A stretch of DNA of 19,326 nucleotides, taken from assembly GCA_008932965.1 (NCBI GenBank), contig WBXG01000032.1, forward strand, positions 1 through 19,326. Direction: 5' to 3'. The translations under genes and the position numbers were made by a program. Shown one piece after another: positions 255 through 18,286 of this stretch. Within the stretch, counting starts at the first letter, position 1. Each line of letters starts with the position of its first letter. The notes under the pieces are model-generated. The model saw nothing but the letters and a program-made list of their open reading frames with translations. It did not search any database and had not been told where the DNA came from. Origin of the DNA: Verrucomicrobiota bacterium (lineage in GTDB: Bacteria > Verrucomicrobiota > Verrucomicrobiia > Chthoniobacterales > UBA6821).

Positions 255-261
255 AAATAAT

Positions 262-277
262 AATATTCGGGTTAAGG
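262..277. repeat. Possible orphan right terminus of the palindromic element family (aatattcgggttaagg)
   Basis: Matches the right ends of other copies (gaaatattcgggctaaag at 14384-14401; gaaacatacgggttaag at 9244-9260). It lies in the 24-bp spacer between the yyaL-like stop (279) and the ffh start (254). The match is only about 15 nt. Confidence 0.3.
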
Positions 278-278
278 A

Positions 279-2624
279 TTATAGAGTTACTTGCTCACAG
301 CAAAAATTTTCACAGCGATAGAGGACTGCTTTTCCCTCTTTAAGTTTCATCCCACTGAGTTCCACCTTGCGTGCTGCTAGCCATTCTTGACCGACATCCC
401 CTTCTGCCAACATGACAATTTGTTCTGGATGAAAACCTTTGCGTGCTTGAGCAAGTAGAAATAATGTGCTTGGCCATGAAAGCTGCCCTGCAATCACCAT
501 CTGGCGTAAAGGAGTGAGTGAATACCAGAGTGCCACGAGTAGTTGAGGTAGAGCTGTAGGCATTGTTTCTAGGATGGAAGCTGAAAGATGAAAAATTGCT
601 AGCGCGCTCTTTTCTGCAATAGGATCATTGAGCATTCTAGAAAAACGAAGATGATTGAGTGCTGCTACAGAATTGGCTGAAGGTTCCGCACCATCATACT
701 CCTCCTTAAGGCGCAGGAGCACGTGAGGATCACCTTTTGCGCTACTAAAATAGCCTCCGTGCTCAGCATCCCAGAAAAGTGCATCCATTTTCTTTTGTAA
801 TATTTTAGCCCACTGTAACCAAACCACATCAAAAGTGGCTTCGTACAAATCAAGCAATCCTTGAATTAAAAAGGCATAATCCTCAGCAAAACCTTGTTCT
901 ATCACTTGCCCGTGACACCAGCTGTGGCGCAGTTCTTGAGAGGAGTTATTATAGAGATGTTTGCGAATAAAAAGAGCCGCACGCACAGCCTGATCCGTAT
1001 ATGCTTGAGAGGCAAATGCCGCTCCAGCACGTGCGTAGGCCGAGATCATCAACCCATTCCAAGCTGTTAATATTTTATCATCCCGTTGAGGACGAGGTCG
1101 TTTTTCTCTGGCTTGAAAAAGTTTTTTTTTAGCAGAGGCAAGTGTCTCTTTGTTGCAATCACTTTGGTTATTATATTCTCCAAACATCAAAATATTTTTA
1201 CCATGAAGCTCTCCATGAGGATCCAACTCATGAGGAACATTCCCCTCCTCGCGTAATTGATAATACTGCTTCATGAGAGAAAACTCTTCCGAGCTAAGAA
1301 GTGTCTCTATTTCCTTCATGGACCAAACATAAAAAGCTCCCTCACTTTTGATACCCATTGTATTGAGGCTATCAGCATCCTCAGCACAGAAAAATCCCCC
1401 CTCGAGCGACGTCATGTCACGTTCCACATAAGATAAAATAGAGTGAACGACCTCACCATACTCGTGAGCACTAAAACTTAACCGGGATATTTCATACTGA
1501 TCCTGAGGAGGAAGCTGCAAAGGCTGATTAGGTAAGGCAGGCGATGAAGGCTGACGACGGCTCTGTGCGTACACACTGCCTGAGGAGGACTTCAAGCTTA
1601 ACTCAGCATCCATCTGGCTTACCGACTTCCCTAGGTGATCAGTATGAAGCACCTGGGTTAACTCACTCTTCCAATGTTTTAAATTAGATAGAGAAGAGGG
1701 AGTCGATGGAACGATCGTCGGGGCAATACAGTTATTTGCTGTTTCATGAGACGTTGAAGAGAGGATTTGATAGGCTTCAAGATAAGCCATGGTAAGCTGT
1801 GCCTGATCGTAGAGCATTTTTTCGAAATGAGGCACCTGCCAGAGGCGATCAACCGAGTAGCGATGAAAGCCTCCCCCTAACTGGTCATGGAGACCACCAG
1901 CAGCCATCTTACGAAGTGTAAACAATGCCATTTTGCGAGCATCCTCTCCTTGCTCATTCTGATGATGATGGGCATAGCGAAATAAAAAAAAGAGTACTGA
2001 AGGTCTTGGAAACTTAGGTACCATACCAAAGCCACCCCAGACTTTATCAAAACTTTTTGAAAATTGTTTGCAGGCACTCTCTAGTGGCATTTCTTTCTTC
2101 TTAGAAAAGAGTGCTGATTTTTTTTTCACGGACTGTTCTAACAATTCCATAGTACGGAGAGCCTCTTCTTCGAGCTGATTTCGATTTTCTTTCCATAATT
2201 GTGCAAGCTGCCGAAGCACTGAGGGAAATCCAATACGACCAGAGATATCGTGAGGAGGAAAATAGGTCCCTCCAAAAAAGGGTTTAAGTTCTGGAGTTAA
2301 CCACACACTCATCGGCCAACCTCCCCCACCTGTGAAGGCTTGTATGTAGCTCATGTAGAGACGATCCACATCGGGACGCTCCTCACGGTCGACTTTGACA
2401 GAAATAAAATGGGCATTGAGAAGGGCTGCAATCTCATGATTTTCGAAAGATTCATGGGCCATCACATGGCACCAGTGACAGGTTGAATAACCAATCGATA
2501 AAAAAATCGGCTTCTGCTCCGTGCGTGCACGAGAGAAGGCTTCATCACCCCAAGGATACCACTCCACGGGATTGGAAGCGTGCTCCTGCAAGTAGGGAGA
2601 GGAGGAGTTTACAAGGTGATTCAT
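279..2624 (-). CDS. Thioredoxin-domain (DUF255 / YyaL, COG1331-type) protein with an (alpha/alpha)6 barrel-like C-terminal part, carrying an in-frame repeat-element insertion
   Basis: N-terminus [55 protein letters not shown] is the hallmark of the family. Downstream motifs are [54 protein letters not shown] and [12 protein letters not shown] place the start at ATG 2624. The track start at 2654 is a TTG that adds 10 non-conserved residues. Confidence 0.9.
1478..1661. mobile_element. Palindromic MITE-like element, copy 1 (176-bp core flanked by TTAA/TTAA), inside the YyaL-like CDS
   Basis: Left end ttaaCCGGGATATTTCATACTGATC (1478-1502). Right end GATCAGTATGAAGCACCTGGGttaa (1637-1661). The interior aligns with copies at 6086, 8507 and 9076. 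It is translated in frame as [14 protein letters not shown]...[13 protein letters not shown]. Confidence 0.9.
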
Positions 2625-2626
2625 AT

Positions 2627-2651
2627 TGAGTAATGAGTAATGAGTAATGAG
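2627..2651. repeat. Heptamer tandem repeat (TGAGTAA x3.6) directly 5' of the yyaL-like ATG
   Basis: tgagtaa tgagtaa tgagtaa tgag is read directly, 3 nt upstream (gene sense) of the ATG at 2624. Related inverted copies ttactcattactta / cattacttcc occur at 2794-2827. Confidence 0.8.
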
Positions 2652-2819
2652 CAAAGGGCAACGAATTTTTTAAGATCAAAAATAAATTAGATTTTGGAAA
2701 TACTTCGAAACATCACATTCAAAACAGTAGCTCAAAAAGGGAGGGCATAAAGCAAGAGTAGCTCGTTAACCACCGCTCTACAGGCTTTACCGTTTACTCA
2801 TTACTTATCTTGTTACCCA

Positions 2820-3827
2820 TTACTTCCTAGGCATTGGCAATCCCAATTTGGCATAAACCTTTGGAGTTGCAATACGGCCTTGTGGGGTACGTTGAAGATA
2901 GCCCTGCATGATCAAGTAGGGCTCATGAACCTCCTCAAGAGTTCCAGCCTCTTCTCCCACAGCTACGGCAAGGGAATGGAGACCCACAGGTCCTCCAGCG
3001 AATTTATGAACAATGGCTTCAAGAATACGCTTATCCATTTCATCAAATCCTTCCTCGTCGATATCAAGCATGGTGAGTGCTTGGGAAGCAGATTCTTGAT
3101 TAATGACTCCATTGGTACGAACTTGAGTAAAGTCACGCACCCAACGCAATAAATTATTAGCAATACGAGGAGTACCACGTGAACGACGTGCAATTTCAAG
3201 CCCTCCTGCATCATCAATCTTAACGTTAAGCAAGCGTGCTGTGCGCATCACTATTGTTTTTAATTCTGAGGCTTCGTAGTAATCCAGACGACAATTCATT
3301 CCAAAACGGGATCGCAACGGCGAGCTAATCATTCCTGCACGTGTAGTGGCTCCAATGAGCGTAAAACGGGCTAGATTAAGACGAACACTTCGAGCATTGG
3401 GACCCTGATCAATCATGATATCGACACAAAAGTCCTCCATGGCAGGATAGAGATATTCTTCAATAACGGGTTGAAGACGATGGATCTCATCAATAAACAA
3501 AATACCACCTCGAGGCATGGTGGTTAGCAGACCTGCAAGATCTCCCGCTTTTTCAATGGCGGGACCACTCGTGGTTTTCACCTCTGCTCCCATCGCGTTT
3601 CCAAGAATATAGGCTAATGTTGTTTTACCAAGACCTGGTGGGCCACTAAGTAAAATGTGTTGTAAGGTATCTCCTCTTTGAGAGGAGGCCTCTACTAGTA
3701 GTTGCAAACGCTCAACCGCCCGAGCCTGACCACAAAATTCTCCAAAAAGAGGAGGCCTTAAGGAAACATCAAAGGGGCTATCAAGTGGTTCCGATTTTAA
3801 ATTGTAGGAAATAGTTTCAGCAGACAT
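2820..3827 (-). CDS. ruvB: Holliday junction branch migration helicase RuvB
   Basis: Motifs [12 protein letters not shown], Walker [10 protein letters not shown], Walker [11 protein letters not shown], sensor [20 protein letters not shown], and [16 protein letters not shown]. The start is set at ATG 3827 (MSAETIS...). The track start at 3914 would overlap cutA by 40 nt and add non-conserved residues. Confidence 0.92.
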
Positions 3828-3874
3828 GAAGAATGAATCTAGATTTGGGAGAGAAGAAGATGAAAAGATCTTTT

Positions 3875-4210
3875 CTATGGGAGCATTGTAGCACAAAGCA
3901 CATCCTTGACCCATTGTGCATAATTAGAATCAACGGAGGTTGGTTCGATCGACATTATCTCTGGCACGGAGTACGGATGAAGTTCTTTTAATCTTTTCAT
4001 GCATGCTTCAATAAGATGATGAGAGGTTTTCAGTAGAACCATGCATTCCTGGACTTCGTTGAGCTTTCCTTGCCAACAATAGATTGAGGTGGCTTTAGGA
4101 AGAATAGTACCACACGCCACCCAATGTTCCTCAACTAAAGAGCGAATTACAGCAATCGCATCAGCCTCAGCAGAGAAGGAAGTGAGCAAGAGAGTGAGCG
4201 AGGTTTTCAT
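3875..4210 (-). CDS. cutA: Divalent-cation tolerance protein CutA
   Basis: 111 aa. [32 protein letters not shown] ... [14 protein letters not shown] matches the CutA1 signature (SIY.W.G ... HPY..PE). Confidence 0.85.
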
Positions 4211-4226
4211 TTGAGATGAGAGGAAA

Positions 4227-5672
4227 TTAAATTAGTAATTTTAAGACATCTAACAACGAGAAAACAATATCGAAAGCGTAACCACTATGAGTTATCCAAT
4301 CCATGAGAAAAGAGCAGAGGGTGAGTAGTAGCATCACAGAAAAAGAAATCTCCCCTATTGAAAACAAAAGTGCAAATAGAGGAACCTTTAGAAGTACGCT
4401 CGCAAAAAGCTCTGGACCTAATAGCAAAAGAGTCATCGAGCAGAGCAGACCTCCAAGCATTGATACCAGCATGGTAATATCTACAAAAAACAAACCCCAC
4501 TGAATGATGTCAGCAATGATCTTTAAGTCATGATTCTCTATTTTTTCAAACGTATCGGTTGTTTTGATAGAAGGTTGCATAGAGGATCTGTTTTTTTTTG
4601 AAAAATTATTTCCGAGTGTTGCAATACGAAAGCCAATGCATTTATTCCCAAGCGCTGCCTCCGATGCATCCAAGATTCTTCCAGGATCAGTGCGTTTGGA
4701 GTCTTCAGGAAATGGAGAGGCCCAAGATCCCCCACGAGTCAAAGGAGACAGAGTGTTGGGATGAGCTGGATCACTCCTCGTGATCCATTCGGCAACATTA
4801 CCTCCCATATCACAGGTCCCATACGATCCTTGAGATTCCTCATAAAAGTTAACAGGCTGGGGCCCAGGGTTCATGAGAGGGAGTGTTGCAATGTTGGAAT
4901 AACATGATCCTGTCTCCACAATCATATTTGTAGGATCTCCGCTATTGGGAGGAAGATCATGTTGTGTGGGATAGAGCCAATACTTATTGTAAAGCCCCCC
5001 TCCAGCGTAGTAAGCTGCTTTTATCCATTGATCCTCACTGGGTAAAAAGTAGAGGGCGTTATTACTCCATTCAGCTTGCTCCTCTCCATTGGGTGATCGA
5101 GTAATAGCATAAGAACCATGCTCCGTACTTGCTTTGATGAGGTCATCGCCCTGCAATTGATTGGGTTGACCATTCTGCAACCAATTACAAAATCGTAATG
5201 CGTTGAAGTAGCCTACATATGTTATCGGGTAACATTCCTTCCCAGGAATCGGAGTGTAATGATAGGTCCCATCATCACGGAGCGAACGCTCGATGGAGGG
5301 AGCCATAGAATCCAGACTCATTCTTTCATCATAAAGACCATGAGGATCCTCTTTTGTAGCGACGGCATTAAGAAAAAAAGACCATTCTGCAACAGTAATT
5401 TCGTATTTGCCGATTTGGTACTCAAGAGCAACAGCTCCAAGATGAGTGATAGCATCAGAACTATTTCCAACATCTCCAACTGGAACAAAAGCAATGGTGA
5501 GTGACGCAGAATCCTGTGAGTTTGTTTTAGGGTCGGGTACAACTTCTGATACACCGTAACTAATCACTACTAATAAACTGAGGATTAAAAAAAAAGTCTT
5601 TAGGAAGGTCATCAAGGAATCTGGAGGGAGATCTTCAAGCAAGGAAGTGATGTATTTCCTAACTTGGGTCAC
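4227..5672 (-). CDS. FGE-sulfatase (SUMF1/EgtB/PvdO-like) domain protein with an N-terminal signal anchor and a C-terminal multi-TM segment
   Basis: YQIGKYEITVAEWSFFLNAV, YFNALRFCNWLQNG, CDMGGNVAEWI and TRGGSWASP are characteristic FGE-sulfatase domain motifs. A hydrophobic N-terminus (FLKTFFLILSLLVVISYGV) and 3-4 hydrophobic helices fill the last ~100 aa. The start is either GTG 5672 or ATG 5612. Confidence 0.8.
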   Translation of the reverse strand: MTQVRKYITSLLEDLPPDSLMTFLKTFFLILSLLVVISYGVSEVVPDPKTNSQDSASLTIAFVPVGDVGNSSDAITHLGAVALEYQIGKYEITVAEWSFFLNAVATKEDPHGLYDERMSLDSMAPSIERSLRDDGTYHYTPIPGKECYPITYVGYFNALRFCNWLQNGQPNQLQGDDLIKASTEHGSYAITRSPNGEEQAEWSNNALYFLPSEDQWIKAAYYAGGGLYNKYWLYPTQHDLPPNSGDPTNMIVETGSCYSNIATLPLMNPGPQPVNFYEESQGSYGTCDMGGNVAEWITRSDPAHPNTLSPLTRGGSWASPFPEDSKRTDPGRILDASEAALGNKCIGFRIATLGNNFSKKNRSSMQPSIKTTDTFEKIENHDLKIIADIIQWGLFFVDITMLVSMLGGLLCSMTLLLLGPELFASVLLKVPLFALLFSIGEISFSVMLLLTLCSFLMDWITHSGYAFDIVFSLLDVLKLLI

Positions 5673-5785
5673 TTAAACTAAAGTATCATGAACCGACGTA
5701 CAAGGCTTATTCACTCAGACCGGACGAAGGATGGTGAGGCCGAACTAAATATAATAAAATTAAAATGAAATATCCGGGCTTGCAC
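5673..5785. repeat. Degenerate or internally rearranged copy of the palindromic element
   Basis: The right end aaaATGAAATATCCGGGCttgc (5762-5783) matches the terminal consensus 14/14. The left part ttaaactaaagtatcatgaaccgacgtacaaggcttat resembles a decayed left arm (ttaacccggatatttcatactgatcgtgac...aaggcttat). Confidence 0.4.
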
Positions 5786-5826
5786 AAAAATCACATTGTT
5801 ATCTGCCTAATGATATTTGAAGATGA

Positions 5827-6051
5827 ATGATTAGTTCTTCAATAAAGCTCATCATGAACATTCCTTCATGCTTCTCTATTCCTCAAAACAGGCTTGTTAA
5901 TCCAAAAACAGAATATGAACGCTCATGTGAAGAGGCCTTTATCAATGCCTCTTTGCCTCCTTTGAAAAAAAAGCCTGTTCTTCGGGAGCCTTCCAAACCC
6001 AAGAAAAAGAACATTGATATTTTTTTAGACGGCAAGCCTCATTTCAATTGA
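5827..6051 (+). CDS. Hypothetical small protein (74 aa), doubtful
   Basis: This is only an ORF in an otherwise long intergenic gap, with no recognisable motif and a lysine-rich tail. Confidence 0.2.
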   Translation: MISSSIKLIMNIPSCFSIPQNRLVNPKTEYERSCEEAFINASLPPLKKKPVLREPSKPKKKNIDIFLDGKPHFN

Positions 6052-6085
6052 GTAAACTCTAGAAGAGCGCATAGAAAACGGTGAG

Positions 6086-6270
6086 CTAACACGGATATTT
6101 TATACTGATCGTGACGAGGAAGCCGCGAAGGCTGATGGGGCAAGGCAAGTGATGAAGTCTGACAACGGCTGTATGAGTCCCTACTGCCCGAGGAAGACTT
6201 CGAGCTTGGGCGCAGCATCCATCTGGCTTCCCGGCTTCCGTAGTAGATCAGTATGAAATATGCAGGTTAA
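6086..6270. mobile_element. Palindromic MITE-like element, copy 2 (177-bp core, flanks CTAA/TTAA), intergenic
   Basis: Left end ctaaCACGGATATTTTATACTGATCGTGACGAGGAAGCCGCGAAGGCTGATGG. Right end CCATCTGGCTTCCCGGCTTCCGTAGTAGATCAGTATGAAATATGCAGGttaa. The arms are mutually reverse-complementary. Confidence 0.92.
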
Positions 6271-6294
6271 CATATGGTTTTTAAAAAATATTAT
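6267..6294 (+). promoter_or_regulatory. Candidate sigma70-type promoter using the element terminus as its -35 box
   Basis: TTAACA (6267-6272), a 16-nt spacer, then TATTAT (6289-6294), 50 nt upstream of the ATG at 6345. The TTAA of the -35 box is the tetranucleotide flanking copy 2. This is pattern-based only. Confidence 0.3.
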
Positions 6295-6344
6295 GCTACT
6301 CTCTGCTAAATAGATTTTTTAACATAATTAACTTATACTTTTTA

Positions 6345-8141
6345 ATGAATTCACCGGCCCTAACTCGATGTGCACAAGAGCATAAGTACTTAAAATGTAC
6401 GTTTTTTTACAACTGTTTCCCGCTTGTTCTAATTATTTTTGCTTTTTTTTACTACGGCTCTTATTACTGCTGTAGCCTCTATCCATCAGGAGAAGGAGGT
6501 GTCGAAGGAGTTACAGCATTACGCTTACTCTCGGGGAAAATCCCTATCATTGATATTGCCCTTAACTACAACCTGCTTTGGTTTTATCCTATTGTCTGGC
6601 TTTTTAAAATGGTGGGCCCTAGCTACACGGCCCTGAGGATCTATTTTTTTACGATCTCCACAATAACAGGATTGCTTAGTTTTTTTATTGTTAAAAAGAC
6701 GACCCATCAAAGCTGGCTTGCCTTGCTAGCTGGTATCTTAGCGCTTCTTCTTCCAGGTCAACTATTCAGAAATTACATGGCTTTTACAGTCCTACTGAAT
6801 ATGTTCCTATTTTTAAAAATATTTCTTCTTCCCTGCCGCAATCTCAAAACGCATCTCTTATGGATGGCCGCCACAGGAGGCGCTTTAGGGGTGACTTTTT
6901 TAATTCGAATCGATCTTGGATTTTTTTTGAGTCTCATATTTTTAGGATCTGTTCTGATGTATCCATGGATTAGAAATGAACAATCAAAAAAGTTTTCATT
7001 TCCAAAACGTTGTTGGCTCTCTCTTGCAGCTCTTTCATTAGGCATCACCGGATTTTTACTACTGCATCTTCCAATATATTTTCATGCAGAGAAAAAAGGC
7101 TTTGTGATTCCTTTTGTCACCCAATATGTGCAATGGCCACGGATGATCGTCAGTCAAGGAACCCATCTCCTCAAAACGATTTTTGAAGATCCAGGATCTT
7201 CTCACCACCTGGCAGCCTATGTCTCTACATCGAGTGCTCCTGCAAATAATGCATCTATAACACAAAGCAACCTTCTGCGTCCTACGTTAGATTCAGCAAC
7301 TATTCGAGAACGCATTACCACACTGAATATCTATCTCCCAATTATTTGTATAGGGCTTCTTCTGCTTTTGACTGCTCTTTTTTTATTCCTTAGTAGAAGA
7401 AAAAAAGAATGTAACTTGAGTCATGGAGCATGGATTTTCTCACTGATGCTGGGGTGCTCCCTCACCCTTTTTCCGCAATATTTTTTCTGGCGTCCCGACA
7501 TGATTCATTTGAGTGAATTCATGGTCCCCATGACAACCACGCTGCTAGTAGCTCTTTATTTCGTATGGATGGTGAAAGAAAAAATAGCACCACTTCTACA
7601 GCCTTTACTCCTAGCTTTTTCAATTTTTGCGATCCTCGATCTCACCCTTTATTTTATCAATGGGTGTCAGTCTCAATCAACCGGCGGAATCGCCATTAGC
7701 CAAGGGAGAACAAAAGAGTTTCTCGGAGCAAACGGAGTATCTGTTAAGCTAGCCCCTCATGAATTTGAAGAAGCCACTGCTATTTCCAAGAGCATCCTTC
7801 AACATTCCCAAAAGGGAGAATATGTCATTTGTTTTCCCTATAATCCCGAAATTAATTTTATGACCGACCGTCCCTCCTATCGTCGGGATCTTTATTGCGA
7901 TGACATGACGGCTTCTAGCAACTTCAATGAAAACGCAATTGCAGAAATTGAACATTATCAACCTGCAGTCATTGTCATCACTGATTGGCCGATCAATGGA
8001 ACAGAGCATTCACGTTTTAGCAATTGGGCTAATACCACCTATCGCTATATTCAAAGCCATTACCAAGCTGATTATGATCATGGAATCATTCACGTTTTTG
8101 TGAACCCCAAAAAAGCAAGTACTCCTCCTAAAAATTTATGA
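6345..8141 (+). CDS. Polytopic inner-membrane protein, probable GT-C superfamily (ArnT/PMT-like) glycosyltransferase with a C-terminal periplasmic domain
   Basis: 598 aa with roughly 12 hydrophobic helices. There is an early loop (SGEGGVEGVTALRLLSGKIPIIDI) where GT39/GT83-type enzymes carry the DE..Y..A..l..G..PY.D motif. A ~150-aa soluble C-terminus follows. The CDS call is confident. The family call is tentative. Confidence 0.75.
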   Translation: MNSPALTRCAQEHKYLKCTFFYNCFPLVLIIFAFFYYGSYYCCSLYPSGEGGVEGVTALRLLSGKIPIIDIALNYNLLWFYPIVWLFKMVGPSYTALRIYFFTISTITGLLSFFIVKKTTHQSWLALLAGILALLLPGQLFRNYMAFTVLLNMFLFLKIFLLPCRNLKTHLLWMAATGGALGVTFLIRIDLGFFLSLIFLGSVLMYPWIRNEQSKKFSFPKRCWLSLAALSLGITGFLLLHLPIYFHAEKKGFVIPFVTQYVQWPRMIVSQGTHLLKTIFEDPGSSHHLAAYVSTSSAPANNASITQSNLLRPTLDSATIRERITTLNIYLPIICIGLLLLLTALFLFLSRRKKECNLSHGAWIFSLMLGCSLTLFPQYFFWRPDMIHLSEFMVPMTTTLLVALYFVWMVKEKIAPLLQPLLLAFSIFAILDLTLYFINGCQSQSTGGIAISQGRTKEFLGANGVSVKLAPHEFEEATAISKSILQHSQKGEYVICFPYNPEINFMTDRPSYRRDLYCDDMTASSNFNENAIAEIEHYQPAVIVITDWPINGTEHSRFSNWANTTYRYIQSHYQADYDHGIIHVFVNPKKASTPPKNL

Positions 8142-9064
8142 AACAGCGTTGGAACCATATCTTTTTTCTTCATGCAAAAATTGCACCAGATTTATTACAA
8201 CCCTACCTCCCTTTCAAATTAGATCTTCTAGATGGAATGGCTATTCTTTCAATCGTTCCTTTTAAAATGGATATGATTCGACTTTGGAATCTTCCTCCAG
8301 CACCCTTCTTCTCACATTTATGGGAAATTAACCTCCGAACTTATGTCAGGGTCGGTGGAAAACCTGGGGTTTATTTTTTTACTCTTGATACTGATAGTGC
8401 TCTGGGTTGTTGGATTGCTAATCACTTCTTTCACCTTCCCTACCGACTTGCAAAAATCAAAGCTGTTGTGAGAAAGGAGCACTTCTATTTTGAGAGTCGA
8501 CGCTCCCTAGCCCGGATATTTCATACTGATCGTGACAAGGAGCTAGCGAAGACTGATGGGTTACCGCCGGCGGCCGGAAGACCGCGGGAGAGACTACCTT
8601 TGGGCAGCCCTGAAAAGGAGAGACGAGTGGGAGCGAGTGAGTCAACGCAGACGAGTATTTTGACACAGGGCTGTATGAGTACACACCGCCCATGTCAAAA
8701 TGGAAGTCTAACGCAATATCCATCTGGCTTCCCGGTCTTCGCAGGTGATCGGCATGAAATATCAGGGCTAGCCTCTTTTAAAACCTCCTTTTGTATTACT
8801 GGAGAAAAAAAGAAAAAAACGATTTTGGATAGATGGACTACAGACCGAGATCGGCTCTTTACTCTCAAACGTGGAGAAATCTACGAAGGGAGAGTGCACC
8901 ACGACTCATGGCCCTTAGAAAAGATAGAGAATCTTATTTTTGAGGATCATTTTTCAACTCAAATTCCCATTAAGTGTCATTTCGACCCTCAAGAATCAAG
9001 CTACGCCCCCTTACTTAATGTCAGTTTCGAAACCTTTAGAAAAACAGGTAATACCATCTCCTAA
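8138..9064 (+). CDS. DUF2071 (B. subtilis YqjF-like, COG3361-type) protein carrying an 87-codon in-frame repeat-element insertion
   Basis: N-terminus WNHIFFLHAKIAPDLLQPYLPFKLDLLDGMAILSIVPFKMDMIRLWNLPPAPFFSHLWEINLRTYVRVGGKPGVYFFTLDTDS...HLPYRLAKI, and C-terminus LDRWTTDRDRLFTL..G.IYEGRVHHDSWPLEKI, both fit the DUF2071 pattern. The start overlaps the upstream stop (ATGA, 8138-8141). Confidence 0.85.
   Translation: MKQRWNHIFFLHAKIAPDLLQPYLPFKLDLLDGMAILSIVPFKMDMIRLWNLPPAPFFSHLWEINLRTYVRVGGKPGVYFFTLDTDSALGCWIANHFFHLPYRLAKIKAVVRKEHFYFESRRSLARIFHTDRDKELAKTDGLPPAAGRPRERLPLGSPEKERRVGASESTQTSILTQGCMSTHRPCQNGSLTQYPSGFPVFAGDRHEISGLASFKTSFCITGEKKKKTILDRWTTDRDRLFTLKRGEIYEGRVHHDSWPLEKIENLIFEDHFSTQIPIKCHFDPQESSYAPLLNVSFETFRKTGNTIS
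8507..8771. mobile_element. Palindromic MITE-like element, copy 3 (257-bp core flanked by CTAG/CTAG), inside the DUF2071 CDS, with a nested 81-bp GC-rich extra segment
   Basis: Left end ctagCCCGGATATTTCATACTGATCGTGACAAGG. Right end CCATCTGGCTTCCCGGTCTTCGCAGGTGATCGGCATGAAATATCAGGGctag. The interior aligns with copy 4 except for extra sequence at about 8564-8647. Confidence 0.92.
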
Positions 9065-9075
9065 AAATATCCGGG

Positions 9076-9259
9076 TTAACACGGATGTTTCATACTGATC
9101 GTGACGAGGAGGCCGCGAAGGCTTATGGGGTAAGACAGGCGAGCATTTTGATGCAGGGCTGTATGTCTACATACTGCCCAAATCAAAATGTGAGTCTAAC
9201 GCAGCATCCATCTGACTTCCCGGCTTTCGTAGTAGATAAGTATGAAACATACGGGTTAA
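9076..9259. mobile_element. Palindromic MITE-like element, copy 4 (176-bp core flanked by TTAA/TTAA), intergenic, preceded by an orphan right end
   Basis: Left end ttaaCACGGATGTTTCATACTGATCGTGACGAGGAGGCCGCGAAGGCTTATGG. Right end CCATCTGACTTCCCGGCTTTCGTAGTAGATAAGTATGAAACATACGGGttaa. The palindrome centre is gtatgt-ct-acatac at 9161-9174. Immediately 5' (9066-9079), aaatatccgggttaa is a right-end fragment sharing the same TTAA. Confidence 0.92.
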
Positions 9260-9276
9260 GACCAATTGGGGGGTAA

Positions 9277-9294
9277 AAACCACGATTGTGGTTT
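9277..9294. terminator. Weak hairpin between convergent genes (aaaccac-gatt-gtggttt)
   Basis: A 7-bp stem with a 4-nt loop. On the minus strand it is followed by a short T run (tt, from the aaaaa at 9275-9279). There is no convincing U-tract on the plus strand. Confidence 0.25.
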
Positions 9295-9374
9295 ACCGAC
9301 ATGACAGTGGAGAGAGCGACTAATACTATTACAAAAAATAGCACTCATCCAAAAAAGCAGACGCGGTATAAAGC

Positions 9375-10448: not shown

Positions 10449-10464
10449 AAAAAAATCTCTAAGG

Positions 10465-11595
10465 TTACACTTTTTTACAACTTTCTAATATTTTCTCATA
10501 GGCATCAATAGAACGACTCCATTGAAAATCTTGTGCTTTTCGAAGAGATACTTTTTTCATATTATCAAGGTGACTGAGATCTTCTATTAAAGATTGTATC
10601 GCATTTGCCATTCCAGAAGGACCCTGATCCAGATCAAAAAAGCAGCCATTCTGACCTTCATCAATAATATCTTGAAGTCCTCCAATGCGACTTCCCAGAA
10701 TAGCAAGTCCCTCAGCAAGAGCTTCAACTCCGACCATAGGAAGTCCTTCTGAAAGTGAAGGAATGAGTAAAACATCTGATTGCTCCATGATTTTTTGAAT
10801 CTCATCTGAAGCCAACCAGCCAGAAAAATGAATCTTATTTTCCAAGCTAAGGGACCTCACCTCATCTTGTGCAGCAGCAAAAAGTGGTCCCTCTCCCACC
10901 ATATTTAATATCCATGGCAGCTCTCGTATTAGGGATAGAGCTCGAATAGCAAAAAGTGGATTTTTTTGGATGCTAAAACGTCCTACGAAAAGAAGCCGTG
11001 TCATTGATGAAGATAAATGAACTTGCCGAGAAGGAAGGTTCACTCCATTCAAAATGACTGTTGGCATTATTCCATAGGCTTTCTGAGCTAGCTTAGCTAC
11101 AAAACTACTAACTGATGTAACATGAGCAGCAGAGGCCCAAATAGGCACAGTAAGAGGTTTGATCAATTTAAAAAGATGATCGGTTTGCTGCGGAACTCCA
11201 CCAGGAACATCTCCCAAGTGTGCCGTTAAAACATACGGAATCCGTGTGAATTGATGAATAATCCAAGCAACAACTCCAGTAGGAACAGCAAAGTGAACAT
11301 GAATAACATGTGGCCTCCAGCAGCATGACTCTTTTAAAGATACCGGCACAACCCTCATGATCCAAAGCATCATTTCAAAAATACTACAAGTATCCTCTCG
11401 ACGTCGTCTGGAGCGAACACGAATCACTTCTACTCCATCAATGAGGGAGCTATCAGGCAAATGAGGCATTCCTGCTGTGACAAAGCGAACTTGATGACCT
11501 CGCTTCACCAAAGCTGAAGCAACTTGAATAGCTACTCGTCCTCCCCCACCCCCAAGAGGTGGACATTCATAACAGAGAACTAGAATTCGCGACAT
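10465..11595 (-). CDS. GT-B fold glycosyltransferase, family 4 (Glycos_transf_1)
   Basis: N-terminus RILVLCYECPPLGGGGGRVAIQVASALVKRGHQVRFVT. The C-terminal E-x7-E region is IPSLSEGLPMVGVEALAEGLAILGSRIGGLQDIIDEGQNG. A 16-bp gap precedes the downstream M48-like gene. Confidence 0.9.
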   Translation of the reverse strand: MSRILVLCYECPPLGGGGGRVAIQVASALVKRGHQVRFVTAGMPHLPDSSLIDGVEVIRVRSRRRREDTCSIFEMMLWIMRVVPVSLKESCCWRPHVIHVHFAVPTGVVAWIIHQFTRIPYVLTAHLGDVPGGVPQQTDHLFKLIKPLTVPIWASAAHVTSVSSFVAKLAQKAYGIMPTVILNGVNLPSRQVHLSSSMTRLLFVGRFSIQKNPLFAIRALSLIRELPWILNMVGEGPLFAAAQDEVRSLSLENKIHFSGWLASDEIQKIMEQSDVLLIPSLSEGLPMVGVEALAEGLAILGSRIGGLQDIIDEGQNGCFFDLDQGPSGMANAIQSLIEDLSHLDNMKKVSLRKAQDFQWSRSIDAYEKILESCKKV

Positions 11596-11718
11596 GATCT
11601 GAAACTAAAGATAATACTCCATAAAAGGGAAGCTTGGAGTGGTTTTTTATTGATATCGGAGGGAGCAATGATGATGATTCGCTCAGATCCGTAATAAAAA
11701 TCAACCAAAAAAAAACCT

Positions 11719-12249
11719 ATGGCTGCTCCTTCATCTGTTAGTGGCAATAACAGTCCAACAAGGCCTGTAACTCCTATACTCTCGGAAAATTACGACGGTA
11801 AGAATCCTCTCTCAACACAAACAAGTGGAAATGCAATTACAGCAAAAAAAAGCAGCCGTCCTAATTACACTAAAGCAAATACAAGCATTCAAAATAAAAA
11901 CTCTAATGCTGCTGCCATCCTTGCTTCGAGAAAACATCTCCCTAAAAGTCAAAATGGATCAATGCCATTAAGGCCCGATCAACATCCTGGTACCATTCCT
12001 CTTTTTAATCCCAATTCTACTCAAGGGAGTGTTAATGATAGACAAGTCAAAAATGCTAAAGCGAGCAGCAATCCAAGTACACAAGGTTATAATCGCTCAG
12101 CAAATTTTCATTTGCTTGTAGCAGGTTTTAACTACAACTTGCAACGGCAGAGCAGGGCTTTTGGGCAGCAAGAAAAAAAACAAGTCCAAACATTAGAGAA
12201 TAATAATTCGGAGAATAATACTAAGGTTAACCCGGATATTTCATACTGA
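11719..12249 (+). CDS. Hypothetical low-complexity N/S/Q/P/K-rich protein (176 aa), coding status uncertain
   Basis: The ORF has no hydrophobic core or signal peptide. Its last 7 codons and stop (KVNPDISY*) are read from the left terminus of a mini-element. Confidence 0.35.
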   Translation: MAAPSSVSGNNSPTRPVTPILSENYDGKNPLSTQTSGNAITAKKSSRPNYTKANTSIQNKNSNAAAILASRKHLPKSQNGSMPLRPDQHPGTIPLFNPNSTQGSVNDRQVKNAKASSNPSTQGYNRSANFHLLVAGFNYNLQRQSRAFGQQEKKQVQTLENNNSENNTKVNPDISY

Positions 12250-12284
12250 AGCGTCATGATTCATCATGAAAAATCTAGATTTAA
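12227..12284. mobile_element. Mini (internally deleted) palindromic element, copy 5
   Basis: The left end ttaaCCCGGATATTTCATACTGA is identical over 23 nt to copy 7. A degenerate right end gattCATCATGAAAAATCTAGAttaa follows. It lies between two convergent stop codons (TGA 12247-12249; tta 12281-12283 = asnB stop). Confidence 0.6.
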
Positions 12285-14149
12285 GAGTTTTGAATTCTCG
12301 CTAACACATATTGAGCCCAAAGAAAAAGCCGTTCGTCACTTCGGCCGCACTGATGTTCCTGTAGTGAGTGATAAAAAAACTTCTTTCCTATTGGTGAAAC
12401 GGGCTCATTAGGAGTGATAGCACCGCTTTGAAACCATCCTCCAATAGGCATTCCAAAGCCTTTTTTCTTTCGATAGATAATGTTGTTAGGAAGAAACGGC
12501 TCGAGTGCTTTTTTCAAGATCCATTTAGTCACACCCCCTCGTAACTTTACCGTATGAGGAAGTCGTCGAGCAAAGTTCACAAGCTCAATATCTAAAAATG
12601 GAGATCGCACCTCCAATGAATGAAGCATACTAACACGATCAATCTTAGCTAAAATATCATCTTGCAAGTAAAGAGATGTAAAAAAATGAAGAGCACGATC
12701 CACTAAACTAGCAGAAGCCCCAGGGCGCTCCCAGGCTTCAATTGCCTCACTATAAATTTCCTCAGGATTATTTTTATCTCCAAAAAAAGAGTCAATTTCT
12801 TGAATATTGAGAGGCCCCATCCAAACGGGCATCCAGAGAGGTTGAGGAAAGAAAAGCCCGCGCAGTGTTCGTTTGATTTTAAAATCAAGGCTGATATTGC
12901 GGTGCGATACGGGAAGATGGGCTGCAAGAAAAGAAAGTGCAGGATGCAATACCTTTGGAACCATTCTAGAATAGAGCTCTGCAGCATGGAGTGCTTTCAA
13001 TGGATCATATCCAGCAAAGAGCTCATCCCCGCCATCGCCACCCAATGCAACGGTAACATGGTCTCTTGCAAACCCAGAAAGTAACCATGTGGGAAGCAAG
13101 GAGCTATCAGCAATTGGTTCATCCAATTGACTCAAGAGTTCTGGTAAAAGATGAACAGCTCGATGAAGATCTAGAATCTCTTCGTGATGAGTAGAACCGA
13201 GATGCAAGGCCATCTGTTGCGCAAAAGGAAGTTCATCAAAAGAAGGATCAGTAAAACCAATGCTAAAAGTTTGAAGCTCTCGTGCCGGAAGATAGCGTGA
13301 AGCCACAGCCGCTATTGCTGAAGAATCGATCCCCCCACTCAAAAAAATTCCAATGGGGACATCCGAGATAAGACGCCGCTTTACTGCTCGATCCAGGAGC
13401 TCCATGAGTTCCTCCGACCATAATTTTCCCCCATCAGCTGGCAGGTCAGGTTGGGATGGCTCTAATCGATATTCCCAATAACGCTGAACTTGAAATGTTT
13501 TATCTTGAAGATCTAGTTTTCCAAAATGGCCTCCAGGGAGTTTATAAATCCCCTCAATCAAAGAATGAGGAGCGGGAATATATCCATAAGCAAAATATTT
13601 TTTGAGTGCTATGGTGGACTCATTTCTAGGGGCTTTGGGATGTTGCATTAAGGCTTTTAGCTCCGATGCAAAAGCAAAAAGATGACCCTCCTGATCCTGA
13701 TGCTGAAAATAGTAGAGTGGCTTCTTACCAAAACGATCTCGTGCAATAAAAATAGTATTCTTTCTTCGATCCTCAATTACAAAGGCCCACATTCCATTGA
13801 GTTTGTCTAGCATCCCTTCACCCCATTCTCGGTAGCCGTGAAGTAGGACTTCGGTATCCGAGTGGTCAGTCTGAAATTGATATCCTTTGGTAATAAGCTC
13901 TGCACGTAGTTCTTTATGATTGTAAATTTCACCATTAAAAATAATCACTAGAGCTCCATCAACTGTTGCCATTGGTTGAATGCCATCACCCAGATCTATA
14001 ATCGAAAGACGTCGATGACCTAAGTAGATCCTTCTTTTTTCTTCAATAAAAAAACCCTCTTGATCAGGACCCCGATGCACAAGGGCTCGTGTCATTTTTT
14101 CAATTACCTCACGATCTCCAGAGCCAATAAAACCAGCTATACCGCACAT
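12281..14149 (-). CDS. asnB: Asparagine synthase (glutamine-hydrolysing) family amidotransferase, AsnB-type
   Basis: MCGIAGFIG N-terminal nucleophile Cys, HRGPD, RRLSIIDL..G.QPM, and the PP-loop SGGIDSS. 622 aa. Confidence 0.9.
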   Translation of the reverse strand: MCGIAGFIGSGDREVIEKMTRALVHRGPDQEGFFIEEKRRIYLGHRRLSIIDLGDGIQPMATVDGALVIIFNGEIYNHKELRAELITKGYQFQTDHSDTEVLLHGYREWGEGMLDKLNGMWAFVIEDRRKNTIFIARDRFGKKPLYYFQHQDQEGHLFAFASELKALMQHPKAPRNESTIALKKYFAYGYIPAPHSLIEGIYKLPGGHFGKLDLQDKTFQVQRYWEYRLEPSQPDLPADGGKLWSEELMELLDRAVKRRLISDVPIGIFLSGGIDSSAIAAVASRYLPARELQTFSIGFTDPSFDELPFAQQMALHLGSTHHEEILDLHRAVHLLPELLSQLDEPIADSSLLPTWLLSGFARDHVTVALGGDGGDELFAGYDPLKALHAAELYSRMVPKVLHPALSFLAAHLPVSHRNISLDFKIKRTLRGLFFPQPLWMPVWMGPLNIQEIDSFFGDKNNPEEIYSEAIEAWERPGASASLVDRALHFFTSLYLQDDILAKIDRVSMLHSLEVRSPFLDIELVNFARRLPHTVKLRGGVTKWILKKALEPFLPNNIIYRKKKGFGMPIGGWFQSGAITPNEPVSPIGKKFFYHSLQEHQCGRSDERLFLWAQYVLARIQNS

Positions 14150-14329
14150 GAGAGAGGAGTGTAGGCAATAAGGTATACTTTATCCTGATTCGCAGTGAGG
14201 CATGTCAAAGCCTGATGCAGATAGCAAAAGCCTTTTAAAATATCTGTTCGATATGCAAGGTGATGAATCATTCAAGGAGTATTAAAAAAAAAATCTTTTA
14301 GGCCAAGCAGATTAGAATGATTGAGAATG

Positions 14330-14399
14330 CTAGCCTGGAGATTTCATGGTGAATCTATTACGGCTTCTGCAAGTGATGAAGATGAAATATTCGGGCTAA
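14330..14399. mobile_element. Mini (internally deleted) palindromic element, copy 6 (flanks CTAG/CTAA)
   Basis: ctagCCTGGAGATTTCATGGTGAATC ... CGGCTTCTGCAAGTGATGAAGATGAAATATTCGGGctaa. The right half aligns with the right arm of full copies (cggcttccgtagtagatcagtatgaaatat). It lies in the 270-bp gap between the sulfotransferase stop and the asnB start. Confidence 0.75.
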
Positions 14400-14419
14400 A
14401 GCTGCGCGGCTACAACTTT

Positions 14420-15343
14420 TTATGAAGGGGAGTTGGAATTCATTAATTCCATATGAAGGTCTACGAGTCTTGCAATTGTAAATTCATGCATCTCTATGAT
14501 TACAAGCAAACCTTGAATAGAGCGTAGTTTTTCGGACCACTGCTCCATAAGGTGTTGGATCTCTTCAATAAATATCTGATCCTGAGCCACGGCAAGTAGC
14601 TTCTCATACATTTGCAGTGCCAGCGTCAAACATAAATCACTATTAGAATAATGCTGTTTCTCTATCATCACATGCCTTAATGCAGGGTCGATAAAATGTT
14701 GAGCATATCCTTGAAGGAGCTCTGGATCGATCTTGAGATGAAGCGCGGAAGCAATGCGTTCCATTTGACGTGAGGGATTTTGGAGTAGCTCGTCGTAATC
14801 CACAAGAACGTAGGAATACCCTTGAGTATGCTGCAGTGATGTCACCAAAGAAGAGATCCAAATCCAAAATGATTTTTCTTGAAGGTCTTGAAAGCTCCTC
14901 TCCACAGAAATGGCAACACTGATAGGATGTCTGATTGCAATGACAATGCTTAAATGAATTTCAAGCACCTCACATATCTTTTTCCAAAATGGAATCAAGA
15001 GTGAGGCGGTTGGAACCTTGAGAGCCAGGGGTCGATCTTGAGGGATTTTTTTTAACAATAACTCTGAGGCACGTAAAAAATATTCACTGTTCAACAAAAA
15101 ATCTTTCTCTGTCTCTGAGAGTGGGACAATCCTGCGAGCACGATTTTTGGCACACGCTTTTAACATTTGGAAATTTAATTCATGGAAATCCCAATCCTCC
15201 CAATATCCCGTCTCATTAAATTCATTAGGAGGCATGAGATTGTCTCCTAAGGAGACCCCCATTGTTTCAAGCCCCTTAGTTAGCACACTTGTTCCGCTTC
15301 GCTTCATCCCAAGTACTAAAATGAGGTTTTTTTTTGGCTGCAT
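14420..15343 (-). CDS. Sulfotransferase family protein (PAPS-dependent type)
   Basis: 5'-PSB-like loop LILVLGMKRSGTSVLTKGL. 3'-PB-like segment AIRHPISVAISVERS (R.P...a.S). 307 aa. It starts 10 bp after the upstream GT2 stop. Confidence 0.75.
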   Translation of the reverse strand: MQPKKNLILVLGMKRSGTSVLTKGLETMGVSLGDNLMPPNEFNETGYWEDWDFHELNFQMLKACAKNRARRIVPLSETEKDFLLNSEYFLRASELLLKKIPQDRPLALKVPTASLLIPFWKKICEVLEIHLSIVIAIRHPISVAISVERSFQDLQEKSFWIWISSLVTSLQHTQGYSYVLVDYDELLQNPSRQMERIASALHLKIDPELLQGYAQHFIDPALRHVMIEKQHYSNSDLCLTLALQMYEKLLAVAQDQIFIEEIQHLMEQWSEKLRSIQGLLVIIEMHEFTIARLVDLHMELMNSNSPS

Positions 15344-15353
15344 TGCACCTGAT

Positions 15354-16322
15354 TTATCTACTCATCTGTGAAGGAGCTTGCTGAATCACATTGCATGTTC
15401 TTTTAACAAGATAGATTGATTTACCCTGTGACTCATAAAAGGTGCGCGTGATCATCTCTGCAAGGAGCCCCATGAGAAAGCTCATGACTCCCATCAAAAA
15501 TGTAAAGACAGCCATAAGTGGGAGTGGTGTGGTGATAAGTGGCTTTCTCATCCAAATCAAAAGAGCGAGTGCCCAACAGGCAAATCCCAAGCTCCCTGCT
15601 AAACTAATGAGACCACAAGCACCAAAGACATACATTGGCTTTTGGGCATGCCGATCGAGAAATTTAACAACCATTAAATCGAGAATAACTTTGAGTACAC
15701 GTTCAAGGCCATACTTAGAATGGCCCGTAGTGCGGGCAAAATGATTGACTGGCAACTCTGTAATGCGGGCTCCATGCCATTTGGTATAGATGGGAAGGAA
15801 GCGGTGCATTTCACCGTAAAGCCTCACCCCTTCAATCACATCACGACGATAAGCCTTGAGTGAACATCCAAAGTCATGCAAGCGCACTCCAGAAATCGCA
15901 GAAATCAATTTATTAGCCATCATGCTAGGAATATTTCTTTGCAGTGCATTATCTTGTCGATCCCGACGCCAGCCAGAACAGACATCATAGCCCTCATCTA
16001 GCTTGAGCAACATTCTGGGGATATCCTCGGGATCATTCTGGTAGTCCCCATCCATCGGAATAATGATCTCTCCTGAGGCATAATCAAAGCCTGCCATCAT
16101 GGCTGCCGTTTGACCAAAGTTACGCCGAAAGTGGACAACTTTGGCCACAGGATAATGGAGGGCAAGGTCCTCAAGAATCTCTCCACTTTGGTCGGTACTT
16201 CCATCATTAACAAAAATCACTTCATACTCTTTTCCAAAACAATCCATGACTTCACGGATTTTAGTAAAGAGCGGGATGATGGCCCCTTGTTCATTGTAGA
16301 TGGGAATGGTAATGGAAATCAT
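15354..16322 (-). CDS. GT2 polyprenyl-phosphate sugar synthase (GtrB / ArnC / DPM1-like) with two C-terminal TM helices
   Basis: MISITIPIYNEQG...EVIFVNDGSTDQS...RNFGQTAAMMAGFDYASGEIIIPMDGDYQNDPEDIP...GWRRDRQD...ANKLI, plus two C-terminal hydrophobic helices. The start is set at ATG 16322. The track start at 16415 is a TTG inside the repeat element. Confidence 0.9.
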   Translation of the reverse strand: MISITIPIYNEQGAIIPLFTKIREVMDCFGKEYEVIFVNDGSTDQSGEILEDLALHYPVAKVVHFRRNFGQTAAMMAGFDYASGEIIIPMDGDYQNDPEDIPRMLLKLDEGYDVCSGWRRDRQDNALQRNIPSMMANKLISAISGVRLHDFGCSLKAYRRDVIEGVRLYGEMHRFLPIYTKWHGARITELPVNHFARTTGHSKYGLERVLKVILDLMVVKFLDRHAQKPMYVFGACGLISLAGSLGFACWALALLIWMRKPLITTPLPLMAVFTFLMGVMSFLMGLLAEMITRTFYESQGKSIYLVKRTCNVIQQAPSQMSR

Positions 16323-16372
16323 GGTAACAGCTGGGTAAGGAGTAATGGTTAATCTATAACGAGTAAAGAATT

Positions 16373-16543
16373 TTAACCCGGATATTTCATACTGATCGTG
16401 ACGAGGAGGCCGCAAATACTGATGGATACTGCGTCAGGATTCGTGGCGCCTCGCGAAGAACCAGTATGAAATATGCGGGCTAGCGCAGCAGCCATCAACC
16501 TTCCCGACCTAAGCAGGTGATTGCCATGAACTATTCATGCTAG
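16373..16543. mobile_element. Composite palindromic element, copy 7: a 111-bp short form (16373-16483, TTAA/CTAG) plus an extra right arm (16484-16543, ending CTAG)
   Basis: ttaaCCCGGATATTTCATACTGATCGTGACGAGGAGGCCGC ... GGCGCCTCGCGAAGAACCAGTATGAAATATGCGGGctag. Then gcagcagccatcaaccttcccgacctaagcaggtgattgccatgaactattcatgctag aligns with the right arm of full copies. Confidence 0.85.
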
Positions 16544-16633
16544 AATCGAAATCACAATTGCTTCTCTTCCTTTTCGTAATCAGACTGTGCGTCGTCTTAA
16601 GACATATCAGTATGCAGCTTTATTTCTTTCTCC

Positions 16634-18211: not shown

Positions 18212-18286
18212 AAAAAAAGAAAACTACCCATTTCCATTTCTTAAACTTTTGCCGAATCCCTTTTTGAATCTACCATTCTCACCTTC

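Follow-up and report, generated by a model that had tools for sequence, protein, structure and literature searches.

The DNA analysed here, referred to throughout as the window, is a stretch of 19,326 nucleotides from a Verrucomicrobiota bacterium of the order Chthoniobacterales (assembly GCA_008932965.1, contig WBXG01000032.1, positions 1 to 19,326 of the forward strand). Its genes include one for a YyaL/DUF255 thioredoxin-domain protein and one for a member of the DUF2071/YqjF family, and both within and between the genes lie copies of a short, almost palindromic repeat. These repeats form one real palindromic family, as an initial annotation made from the sequence had observed, and four full copies, one composite, two mini forms and three end remnants were recovered in the window by repeat search, alignment of the five large copies with MAFFT, and nhmmer searches with a profile of 93 copies of the family (Table 1). 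We regard the family as a real, uncatalogued and recently mobile group of MITEs (miniature transposable elements with inverted repeats) whose tolerance within coding sequence resembles that of the Rickettsia palindromic elements (RPEs). Four attributes of such elements are present, namely terminal inverted repeats, a target duplication, small size without a transposase gene, and dispersed copies with evidence of mobility in the form of an empty/filled polymorphism, so that the dense, non-autonomous, MITE-like family proposed at the outset is borne out.

The four copies originally described as full were all found again with the family profile. That at 8507 is a long form, in which an extra internal module of 81 bp divides the nhmmer match and brings the net addition to 261 bp (87 codons). 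The region 16373-16543, previously taken as one form, does contain an element, but this is only 111 bp long, lies in the divergent spacer between a GT2 gene and uvrC, and adjoins at its own CTAG the orphan right half of another copy; over 16373-16542 nhmmer reports three pieces. The 14-nt terminal motif AATATNCGGGYTAR (at most one mismatch) occurs 13 times in the window against a chance expectation of 0.07, and a count of 13 was reached in none of 200 shuffles. With this excess, the two orphan ends already suspected (262-275 and 9066-9079) are confirmed, together with the right end of a degenerate copy (5769-5782). The first of these orphan ends is too short for nhmmer to detect. The degenerate copy stood in part: its right terminal repeat (5765-5782) is recognisable, and the remainder of 5673-5785 is without statistical support.

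Table 1 Repeat copies and their host genes in the window
Feature	Position	Strand	Flanks or context	Evidence
Orphan right end (AATATTCGGGTTAA)	262..277	+	between ffh start and YyaL stop	exact terminal-motif match
Host gene YyaL/DUF255, thioredoxin-domain protein, 791 aa	279..2654	-		Pfam Thioredox_DsbH 1e-75
Full copy, 184 bp	1478..1661	+	TTAA both flanks	nhmmer 1478-1660, E 3e-47
Degenerate copy	5673..5785	+		terminal-motif match, 1 mismatch; nhmmer E 0.045, end only
Full intergenic copy, 185 bp	6086..6270	+	CTAA...TTAA	nhmmer 6087-6269, E 2e-54
Host gene DUF2071/YqjF family, 308 aa	8138..9064	+		relatives about 220-247 aa
Long form, 265 bp	8507..8771	+	CTAG both flanks	nhmmer 8508-8563 (4e-14) and 8637-8770 (4e-31)
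Orphan right end	9066..9079	+	TTAA common to adjoining copy	exact terminal-motif match
Full copy, 184 bp	9076..9259	+	TTAA both flanks	nhmmer 9076-9258, E 4e-55; hairpin z -7.5
Mini form, 58 bp	12227..12284	+		left end nhmmer 12227-12259, E 2e-5
Mini form, 70 bp	14330..14399	+	CTAG...CTAA	right end nhmmer 14359-14398, E 2e-4; exact terminal motif; hairpin z -3.6
Short element, 111 bp	16373..16483	+	TTAA...CTAG	nhmmer left arm 2e-14 and right end; inverted repeat found
Orphan right half of another copy	16480..16543	+		nhmmer profile positions 120-183, E 7e-8

All large copies in the window match the profile best on the + strand, in agreement with the common orientation first noticed, and all of them form long hairpins (z -3.6 to -7.6), with the expected central dyad located at 9157-9179. 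The intergenic copy at 6086, for example, lies upstream of an open reading frame (ORF) at 6345-8141 and has a minimum free energy of -84 kcal/mol (z -7.3). The copy at 9076 occupies a convergent intergenic spacer and carries a spurious called gene of 63 aa (P0015), and the orphan end beside it and the end of the DUF2071 gene overlap. Abutting of copies in this way is also found in other genomes. Of the mini forms, that at 14330 consists of a short core between two terminal repeats, and in that at 12227 the left terminal repeat is well preserved and the right one degenerate. The latter also meets an ORF at 11719-12249 (176 aa, Ser/Asn/Gln-rich, no Pfam match), which stops at a TGA at 12247-12249 within the left terminal repeat, and the predicted C-terminus of this protein is therefore set by the element. 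Domain searches of the ORFs in the window found no transposase, as had been stated. About ten copies or fragments were counted over the contiguous ~33.5 kb around the window, and contigs of 70-76 kb, assembled independently from ENA, NCBI and JGI metagenomes, match the window itself at ~99% identity.

Across the family, element sizes range from 58 to 380 bp with a mode of 184 bp, and the terminal inverted repeats of ~25 bp (5'-CCCGGATATTTCATACTGATC; the end sequence is also given as CCCGGATATTTCATACTG) are conserved in 93 aligned copies. The ends read CCCGG...CCGGG, so that a copy in its target has the form TTAA-CCC...GGG-TTAA. The arms are 80-95% complementary within and between copies, and the resulting near-palindrome folds to a hairpin of ~90 bp. 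Several types of arm and core have been recombined as a mosaic, which explains why the RNAalifold consensus over all sub-types is poor (-10 kcal/mol).

To define the target, 104 full copies were oriented and aligned with their flanks and 95 flank pairs were compared. Each copy is bounded on both sides by a YTAR tetranucleotide, a feature missed at first, and the two flanking 4-mers are identical in 69 of the 95 pairs (TTAA 38, CTAG 21 and the non-palindromic TTAG 10). The ten TTAG/TTAG copies include three different sub-types, so the 4-mers come from the target rather than from the element, and a duplication of 4 bp is favoured over one of TA. The family thus duplicates 4 bp at YTAR, with a preference of TTAA over CTAG and of CTAG over TTAG. 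Abutting and nested copies with one 4-mer in common are frequent. The 81-bp module of the long form, for example, holds a TTAG of its own (GGAGACTGCCTTTAGACAGCCC) at which further copies are nested in three independent loci (L036 6767-6950, L068 2798-2981 and L095 98-281), and this TTAG is therefore an insertion hot spot within the element.

The occurrence of the family elsewhere was assessed by scanning the 18-mer GGATATTTCATACTGATC over one genome per species, which gave more than 96 stretches, and by running nhmmer on 707 kb of these; the family-wide counts and fractions reported here rest on the matches listed, and the copy counts are lower bounds. At least 233 non-overlapping nhmmer matches, at least 124 of them full length, were found in the genomes of five other species of Verrucomicrobiota, where they are spread over more than 80 contigs (Kiruna_bin-02438, at least 103; Tobar2m-G38, at least 94; Deming_bin.170, at least 9; SMAG_U8253, at least 7; and a LacPavin MAG, or metagenome-assembled genome, at least 1), an outcome that answers the test set earlier between a genome-wide family and a local duplication. 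Among the matches listed, true copies are all in Verrucomicrobiota MAGs. Ten loci from outside the phylum contained the 18-mer by chance and lacked the element. The window is syntenic with a contig of the Tobar genome (L064), in which AsnB is 80% identical. Evidence of mobility at the level of strains lies ~5 kb downstream of the window end, where one contig (L002, 17911-18175) has a long-form copy of 261 bp between two TTAA, with an old orphan end (TTAATCCGATATTTTATACT) beside it, and two near-identical contigs (L001 and L003, ~17910) have a single TTAA. A recent insertion would account for this polymorphism, and so would a seamless loss. The family is real and recently mobile in a group of freshwater and soil Verrucomicrobia.

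The length of the unit and its reading frames follow a simple rule. Of 125 terminal-repeat pairs, 63 show a net insertion of exactly 180 bp and 64% one that is divisible by three; for the long form the figure is 261 bp. In either orientation the consensus can be read without a stop in exactly one frame, that in which the duplicated YTA forms a leucine codon; it begins TTA ACC CGG and encodes LTRIFHTD...DQYEISGL. Among 62 copies, this frame (frame 0) is open in 45 on the + strand and in 47 on the - strand, and none of the 62 has any of the remaining four frames open. The peptides of both orientations are without a match in Pfam. A genic copy that lands in frame 0 would therefore add a peptide of ~60 residues, and about one third of genic hits would keep the reading frame.

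The positions of the copies are consistent with this rule. In the loci listed, 24 of 111 elements (22%) lie inside long ORFs, compared with 51% of random intervals, and 22 of these 24 use frame 0, with the two orientations split 12:12. If only frame-0 genic insertions and all intergenic insertions survived, the share inside ORFs would, on a rough calculation, be (0.51/3)/(0.51/3 + 0.49) = 26%, to be compared with the 22% observed. Hosts identified with NCBIfam, in each of which the profile match is split around the insert, are Dxr, MurD, GlnD, a low-molecular-weight protein tyrosine phosphatase (LMW-PTP), PyrF, PheA (two tandem copies), RnpA, LivM and AroD. Orthologues without the insert also occur. 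For example, the phosphatase of the Tobar genome has 149 aa and no insert and that of the Kiruna genome carries one, and a protein of ~1000 aa has one insertion common to Kiruna and Tobar and another specific to Kiruna. Four further long ORFs that host elements (L086 3285-6020, L084 172-1233, L006 1244-3841 and L093 5624-7999) have in common the N-terminal motif F/YYD..M....RLG.PG.Y.Y, and they may represent a clade-specific secreted family that is unusually permissive to insertions.

The open frame of the element has also entered protein databases in its own right, being annotated in Verrucomicrobia/Chthoniobacterales MAGs as 'hypothetical proteins' of 49-107 aa (P0001-P0033; window 9085-9276). 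A protein-database search with the element peptide returned 33 short spurious ORFs and no long host proteins among the best 41 candidates.

Two copies in the window are themselves in frame within genes, a position that had gone unrecognised. The copy at 1478 is read on the opposite strand as 61 codons of the YyaL ORF (frame-0 peptide LTQVLHTD...DQYEISRL), and alignment of this protein with PDB 7tkv gives two stretches that flank the copy, with query residues 289-406 (118 residues) opposite only 22. The long form at 8507 lies in frame in the DUF2071 ORF (junction peptide ...ESRRSLARIFHTD...), and the Pfam DUF2071 match is likewise in two stretches. Orthologues of this gene carry inserts of 87, 60, 60 and 56 aa, all at one site, and one orthologue without an insert (P0038) reads RS-LASF there, with CTAG intact and flanks 92% identical to those of P0036. 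In an AlphaFold2 model built from an alignment of 119 sequences, residues 1-122 and 212-306 of the DUF2071 host have predicted local distance difference test (pLDDT) values of at least 95, and the insert (residues 124-210), which falls between two adjacent strands, has values of 30-67. The insert is thus predicted to form a disordered loop in an otherwise intact fold, and in this one case the model agrees with the fold compatibility proposed for RPEs.

The same CTAG site was compared between lineages (P0034-P0038). Sister lineages with 95%-identical flanks contain different sub-types, one of 87 aa and one of 60 aa, and a nested lineage is without the element; the differing sub-types therefore indicate repeated insertion, conversion between copies, or precise excision. 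At the other host gene, a tandem heptamer, (GAGTAAT)x3, lies directly upstream of the YyaL start (window 2629-2650) and has an inverted partner at 2785-2808. One 7-bp unit is absent in the related strains L100 and L101, and the 5' region therefore contains a tract of variable length.

The explanation that best fits these observations, and very probably the correct one, is a family of non-autonomous cut-and-paste MITEs that is specific to a clade of Chthoniobacterales and tolerated in frame within genes. A transposase supplied in trans would recognise the terminal inverted repeats of ~25 bp and insert the element at YTAR, duplicating its 4 bp. Interchangeable arm and core modules make up the near-palindrome and its ~90-bp hairpin, and the unit, a multiple of three in length (180 bp, or 60 codons, with a long form of 261 bp, or 87 codons), offers one open frame in each orientation. 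In-frame copies would then persist in housekeeping genes, where the peptide may be tolerated as a disordered surface loop, genic copies in other frames would presumably be purged, and intergenic copies would accumulate, often nested in or adjoining older ones.

No enzyme that could mobilise the elements was found among the loci, and we therefore infer that mobilisation occurs in trans. The element ends point to an IS1380/piggyBac-like or an IS5-group transposase as the two leading candidates. An all-versus-all blastp of 588 ORFs from the loci gave no multi-copy transposase-like protein. Terminal-repeat pairs 450-4300 bp apart were considered as a possible autonomous parent and rejected; they enclose only host genes, among them those for a 565-aa membrane protein, an LMW-PTP and a DinB-like polymerase. 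A PD-(D/E)XK 'transposase' gene (PDDEXK_2, PF12784, E 3e-38) beyond the window end (L001 18709-19557), at the end of the contig, is the sole gene nearby that is annotated as a transposase, and it was also dismissed, since none of the element ends adjoins it. This gene is where three independent assemblies break off, inside it or shortly past it, which suggests that it is a multi-copy repeat.

Several asymmetries between the two strands of the element are apparent. With RNA parameters, 61 of 62 copies form a more stable hairpin on the + strand of the profile than on the complementary strand (-89.6 versus -74.3 kcal/mol, a difference of ~15), and with DNA parameters 97 of 104 copies do so. Common (high-frequency) variants of the terminal stem give G:U on the + strand and almost never A:C. 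TTAG/TTAG flanks occur ten times and CTAA/CTAA flanks never. The orientation of the element also correlates with local GC skew, the + strand lying on the C-rich strand of the genome in a ratio of 88:37 (Fisher p 9e-6; locus-flip permutation p 1.5e-4). This effect is strong in Tobar2m-G38 (48:11), where gene-strand bias does not account for it, and Kiruna_bin-02438 does not show it (26:24). Mutation bias was discarded as a cause of the asymmetry, given that the spectrum of rare variants is strand-symmetric. A strand-neutral count of arm against arm shows a modest excess (640 versus 471), and the explanation preferred here is therefore not built on asymmetry.

The hairpin strand (97 of 104), the imbalance between TTAG and CTAA, the GC skew and the variation at the DUF2071 site nevertheless suggest a single-strand step. 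The asymmetries and the differences in sub-type leave room for a replication-linked or single-strand step, and they amount to too little to assert one. In a bolder version, which we consider unlikely, the family would be the non-autonomous partner of an IS1380/piggyBac-related transposase specific for TTAA/YTAR and capable of seamless excision, shaped for a reversible life in coding sequence and propagated perhaps through a replication-linked, strand-specific single-stranded hairpin. If this were true, bacteria would have a piggyBac-like system for reversible in-frame insertions into proteins.

A cut-and-paste MITE family is not the only way to account for the repeats, and the flanks bear most directly on one alternative, a MITE of the Correia, ERIC (enterobacterial repetitive intergenic consensus) or Nezha type moved by an IS630/Tc1-mariner-like transposase, in which the duplication would comprise TA alone, with the outer Y and R reflecting target preference together with the terminal bases of the element. 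IS630 prefers CTAG and duplicates TA. The central TA is present in all flanks, and 13 of 95 copies have unequal 4-mers in which the inner bases are still complementary (for example TTAG...CTAG), both as such a mechanism would have it. However, it predicts outer bases that are independent of the element's own end bases, whereas an outer base in fact varies in concert with the inner base of the opposite side, as the 69 identical pairs attest, and the non-palindromic TTAG/TTAG pairs in different sub-types are the signature of a direct duplication of 4 bp. We consider duplication of TA alone improbable. It is quite improbable, too, that the repeats are primarily a structured RNA or DNA signal (a terminator, mRNA stabiliser, RNase target or small RNA) selected for its hairpin, with mobility secondary. 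Such a role would suit hairpins of about -90 kcal/mol, the greater stability of the + strand in 61 of 62 copies, which could reflect selection on one transcript, and the excess of copies in convergent spacers (20 of 66 intergenic copies, compared with 15% of all spacers). Yet orientation is not biased with respect to transcription (20 same to 23 opposite in ORFs; 15:19 in co-directional spacers), copies lie within coding sequences and in divergent promoter regions, the hairpins of copies in ORFs are not weaker, and the wobble asymmetry is modest on the strand-neutral count. There is no T-tract signature of a terminator and no enrichment of promoter or terminator signals, and Rfam, a check proposed with the initial annotation, gave no match at the gathering threshold for the whole window or at E<=1 for 5900-9400. 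The target duplications and the insertion polymorphism indicate, moreover, that the copies were placed by transposition.

The peptide itself might be what selection retains, a domain or linear motif that has spread among proteins and is not simply carried along by selfish DNA, and its termini (LTRIFHTD...DQYEISGL) are indeed conserved across unrelated hosts, with copies in ORFs slightly nearer to the consensus than others (profile scores 158 versus 139, p 0.03). A difference in score of this kind is, however, also expected from a ban on indels or from younger age, and the same DNA is mostly intergenic. Both orientations are read and give different central peptides, neither of which is in Pfam, the insert modelled with AlphaFold2 has a pLDDT of 30-67, and close orthologues do without it; a protein module of 60 residues is accordingly a very improbable explanation. 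The high local density of copies, and nothing else, would speak for a segmental duplication or an assembly artefact at this locus. Local duplication is ruled out by the differently flanked copies in the genomes of five other species, where more than 80 contigs carry them, the window copies recur at ~99% identity in the independent ENA, NCBI and JGI assemblies, and the probability that we attach to this last alternative is negligible.

Several points weigh against the cut-and-paste MITE family that we favour. Neither a transposase nor an autonomous parent with these ends was found in the 33.5 kb around the window and the 707 kb of related loci. The duplication of 4 bp is a statistical result, and at any single site of TTAA or CTAG, these being palindromic, a duplication of TA is also compatible with the flanks. 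Precise loss, by slippage between the 4-bp repeats for instance, might lie behind the sole empty/filled polymorphism. The translation of in-frame copies and their tolerance are deduced from intact ORFs, essential host genes and one AlphaFold2 model. Finally, plain double-stranded cut-and-paste does not predict the asymmetries in hairpin strand, TTAG/CTAA flanks and GC skew.

That a bacterial MITE is sometimes intragenic is already well known. The consensus, however, had no blastn match in plasmids or phages, the 18-mer had none in viral contigs, and literature searches returned no described MITE of Verrucomicrobia, Spartobacteria or Chthoniobacterales. Among known repeats, the REP/BIME palindromes (repetitive extragenic palindromes and the mosaic elements that they form) differ in their length of 20-40 bp, their GTAG or CGTC head and their association with a RAYT gene, whereas the present elements have 180 bp and other termini, and no RAYT-like gene was found in the window. 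The IS5 group of the IS5 family has a YTAR-type duplication of 4 bp and ends that typically begin GG or GA; the elements described here begin CCC, and no IS5-like transposase was found in the loci.

The resemblance to piggyBac and IS1380 offers a lead as to the enzyme. IS1380 elements have CC ends and repeats of 4-5 bp. In the present family TTAA accounts for 38 of the 69 identical flank pairs and the ends read CCCGG...CCGGG, as expected for elements of this kind. With piggyBac it shares a TTAA-type target, a duplication of 4 bp and CCC...GGG ends that abut TTAA, the piggyBac junction being ...GGG TTAA CCCTAGAAAG... (PMC7351741), and among prokaryotes piggyBac has distant relatives in the IS1380 transposases (PMC10140906). 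The family differs in that its target is relaxed to YTAR, including CTAG and TTAG, and in that no such transposase was found near any copy in the loci.

The initial annotation had compared the repeats with RPEs, Correia elements and ERIC sequences, and of these only the RPEs proved a good functional analogue. The Correia (NEMIS) elements of Neisseria are similar in their terminal inverted repeats of ~26 bp, their length of 100-160 bp, their hundreds of copies, and their mosaic end sub-types, internally deleted forms and insertion polymorphism between strains (PMC3184786). In contrast, they duplicate TA, are intergenic and contain integration host factor (IHF) sites and promoters, and their sequences are unrelated; the present family duplicates 4 bp at YTAR, lies in frame within genes in ~22% of cases and has no detected promoter or terminator signal. 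ERIC and YPAL sequences (Delihas 2007, 2011) are likewise imperfect palindromes, of 127-168 bp, some of whose intragenic copies carry ORFs (PMC10969869, PMC3184786). They are confined to enterobacteria, however, and their intragenic copies are exceptional, compared with about one in five here. Correia and ERIC elements are both flanked by TA and not by a 4-bp repeat (PMC3184786), and the co-variation of flanks described above, which favours 4 bp, sets the family apart from this type.

According to PMC10969869 and PMC3184786, RPE-1 to RPE-10 (Ogata et al. 2000) are palindromic repeats of ~105-150 bp that lie in frame in unrelated genes. The two families have in common short palindromic repeats that form hairpins, frequent in-frame residence in unrelated housekeeping genes, and a conserved peptide believed to fit within the host fold, and an autonomous parent is known for neither. 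The family described here differs in occurring in Verrucomicrobiota rather than Rickettsiales, and no evidence of a sequence relationship was found, RPE consensus sequences not having been compared. It also differs in its 25-bp terminal inverted repeat, its duplication of 4 bp at YTAR and its polymorphism between strains, in being readable in either orientation in one defined frame, and in its longer unit (net 180 or 261 bp). Because of the different phylum, the lack of evidence found for relatedness, and the clear terminal repeats and target duplication, we do not treat it as an RPE. RPEs, the paradigm for high-frequency in-frame insertion (PMC10969869), are nevertheless the closest functional analogue, in the sense that the family works like them rather than being a member.

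The comparison also indicates why the family matters. For 25 years RPEs have been the paradigm of selfish DNA that resides within genes coding for proteins, and their route there is obscured by a lack of clear transposon hallmarks and of any movement seen today. To RPE-like behaviour the present family adds intact terminal repeats, a defined duplication of 4 bp, a rule of length and frame that explains tolerance, and polymorphism between strains. Its practical effects are that copies break MAG assemblies, create spurious 'hypothetical proteins' and inflate the lengths of orthologues in the clade. Alongside RPEs, it provides a tractable second system for asking by what route palindromic elements enter coding sequence and whether new segments of proteins arise from them.

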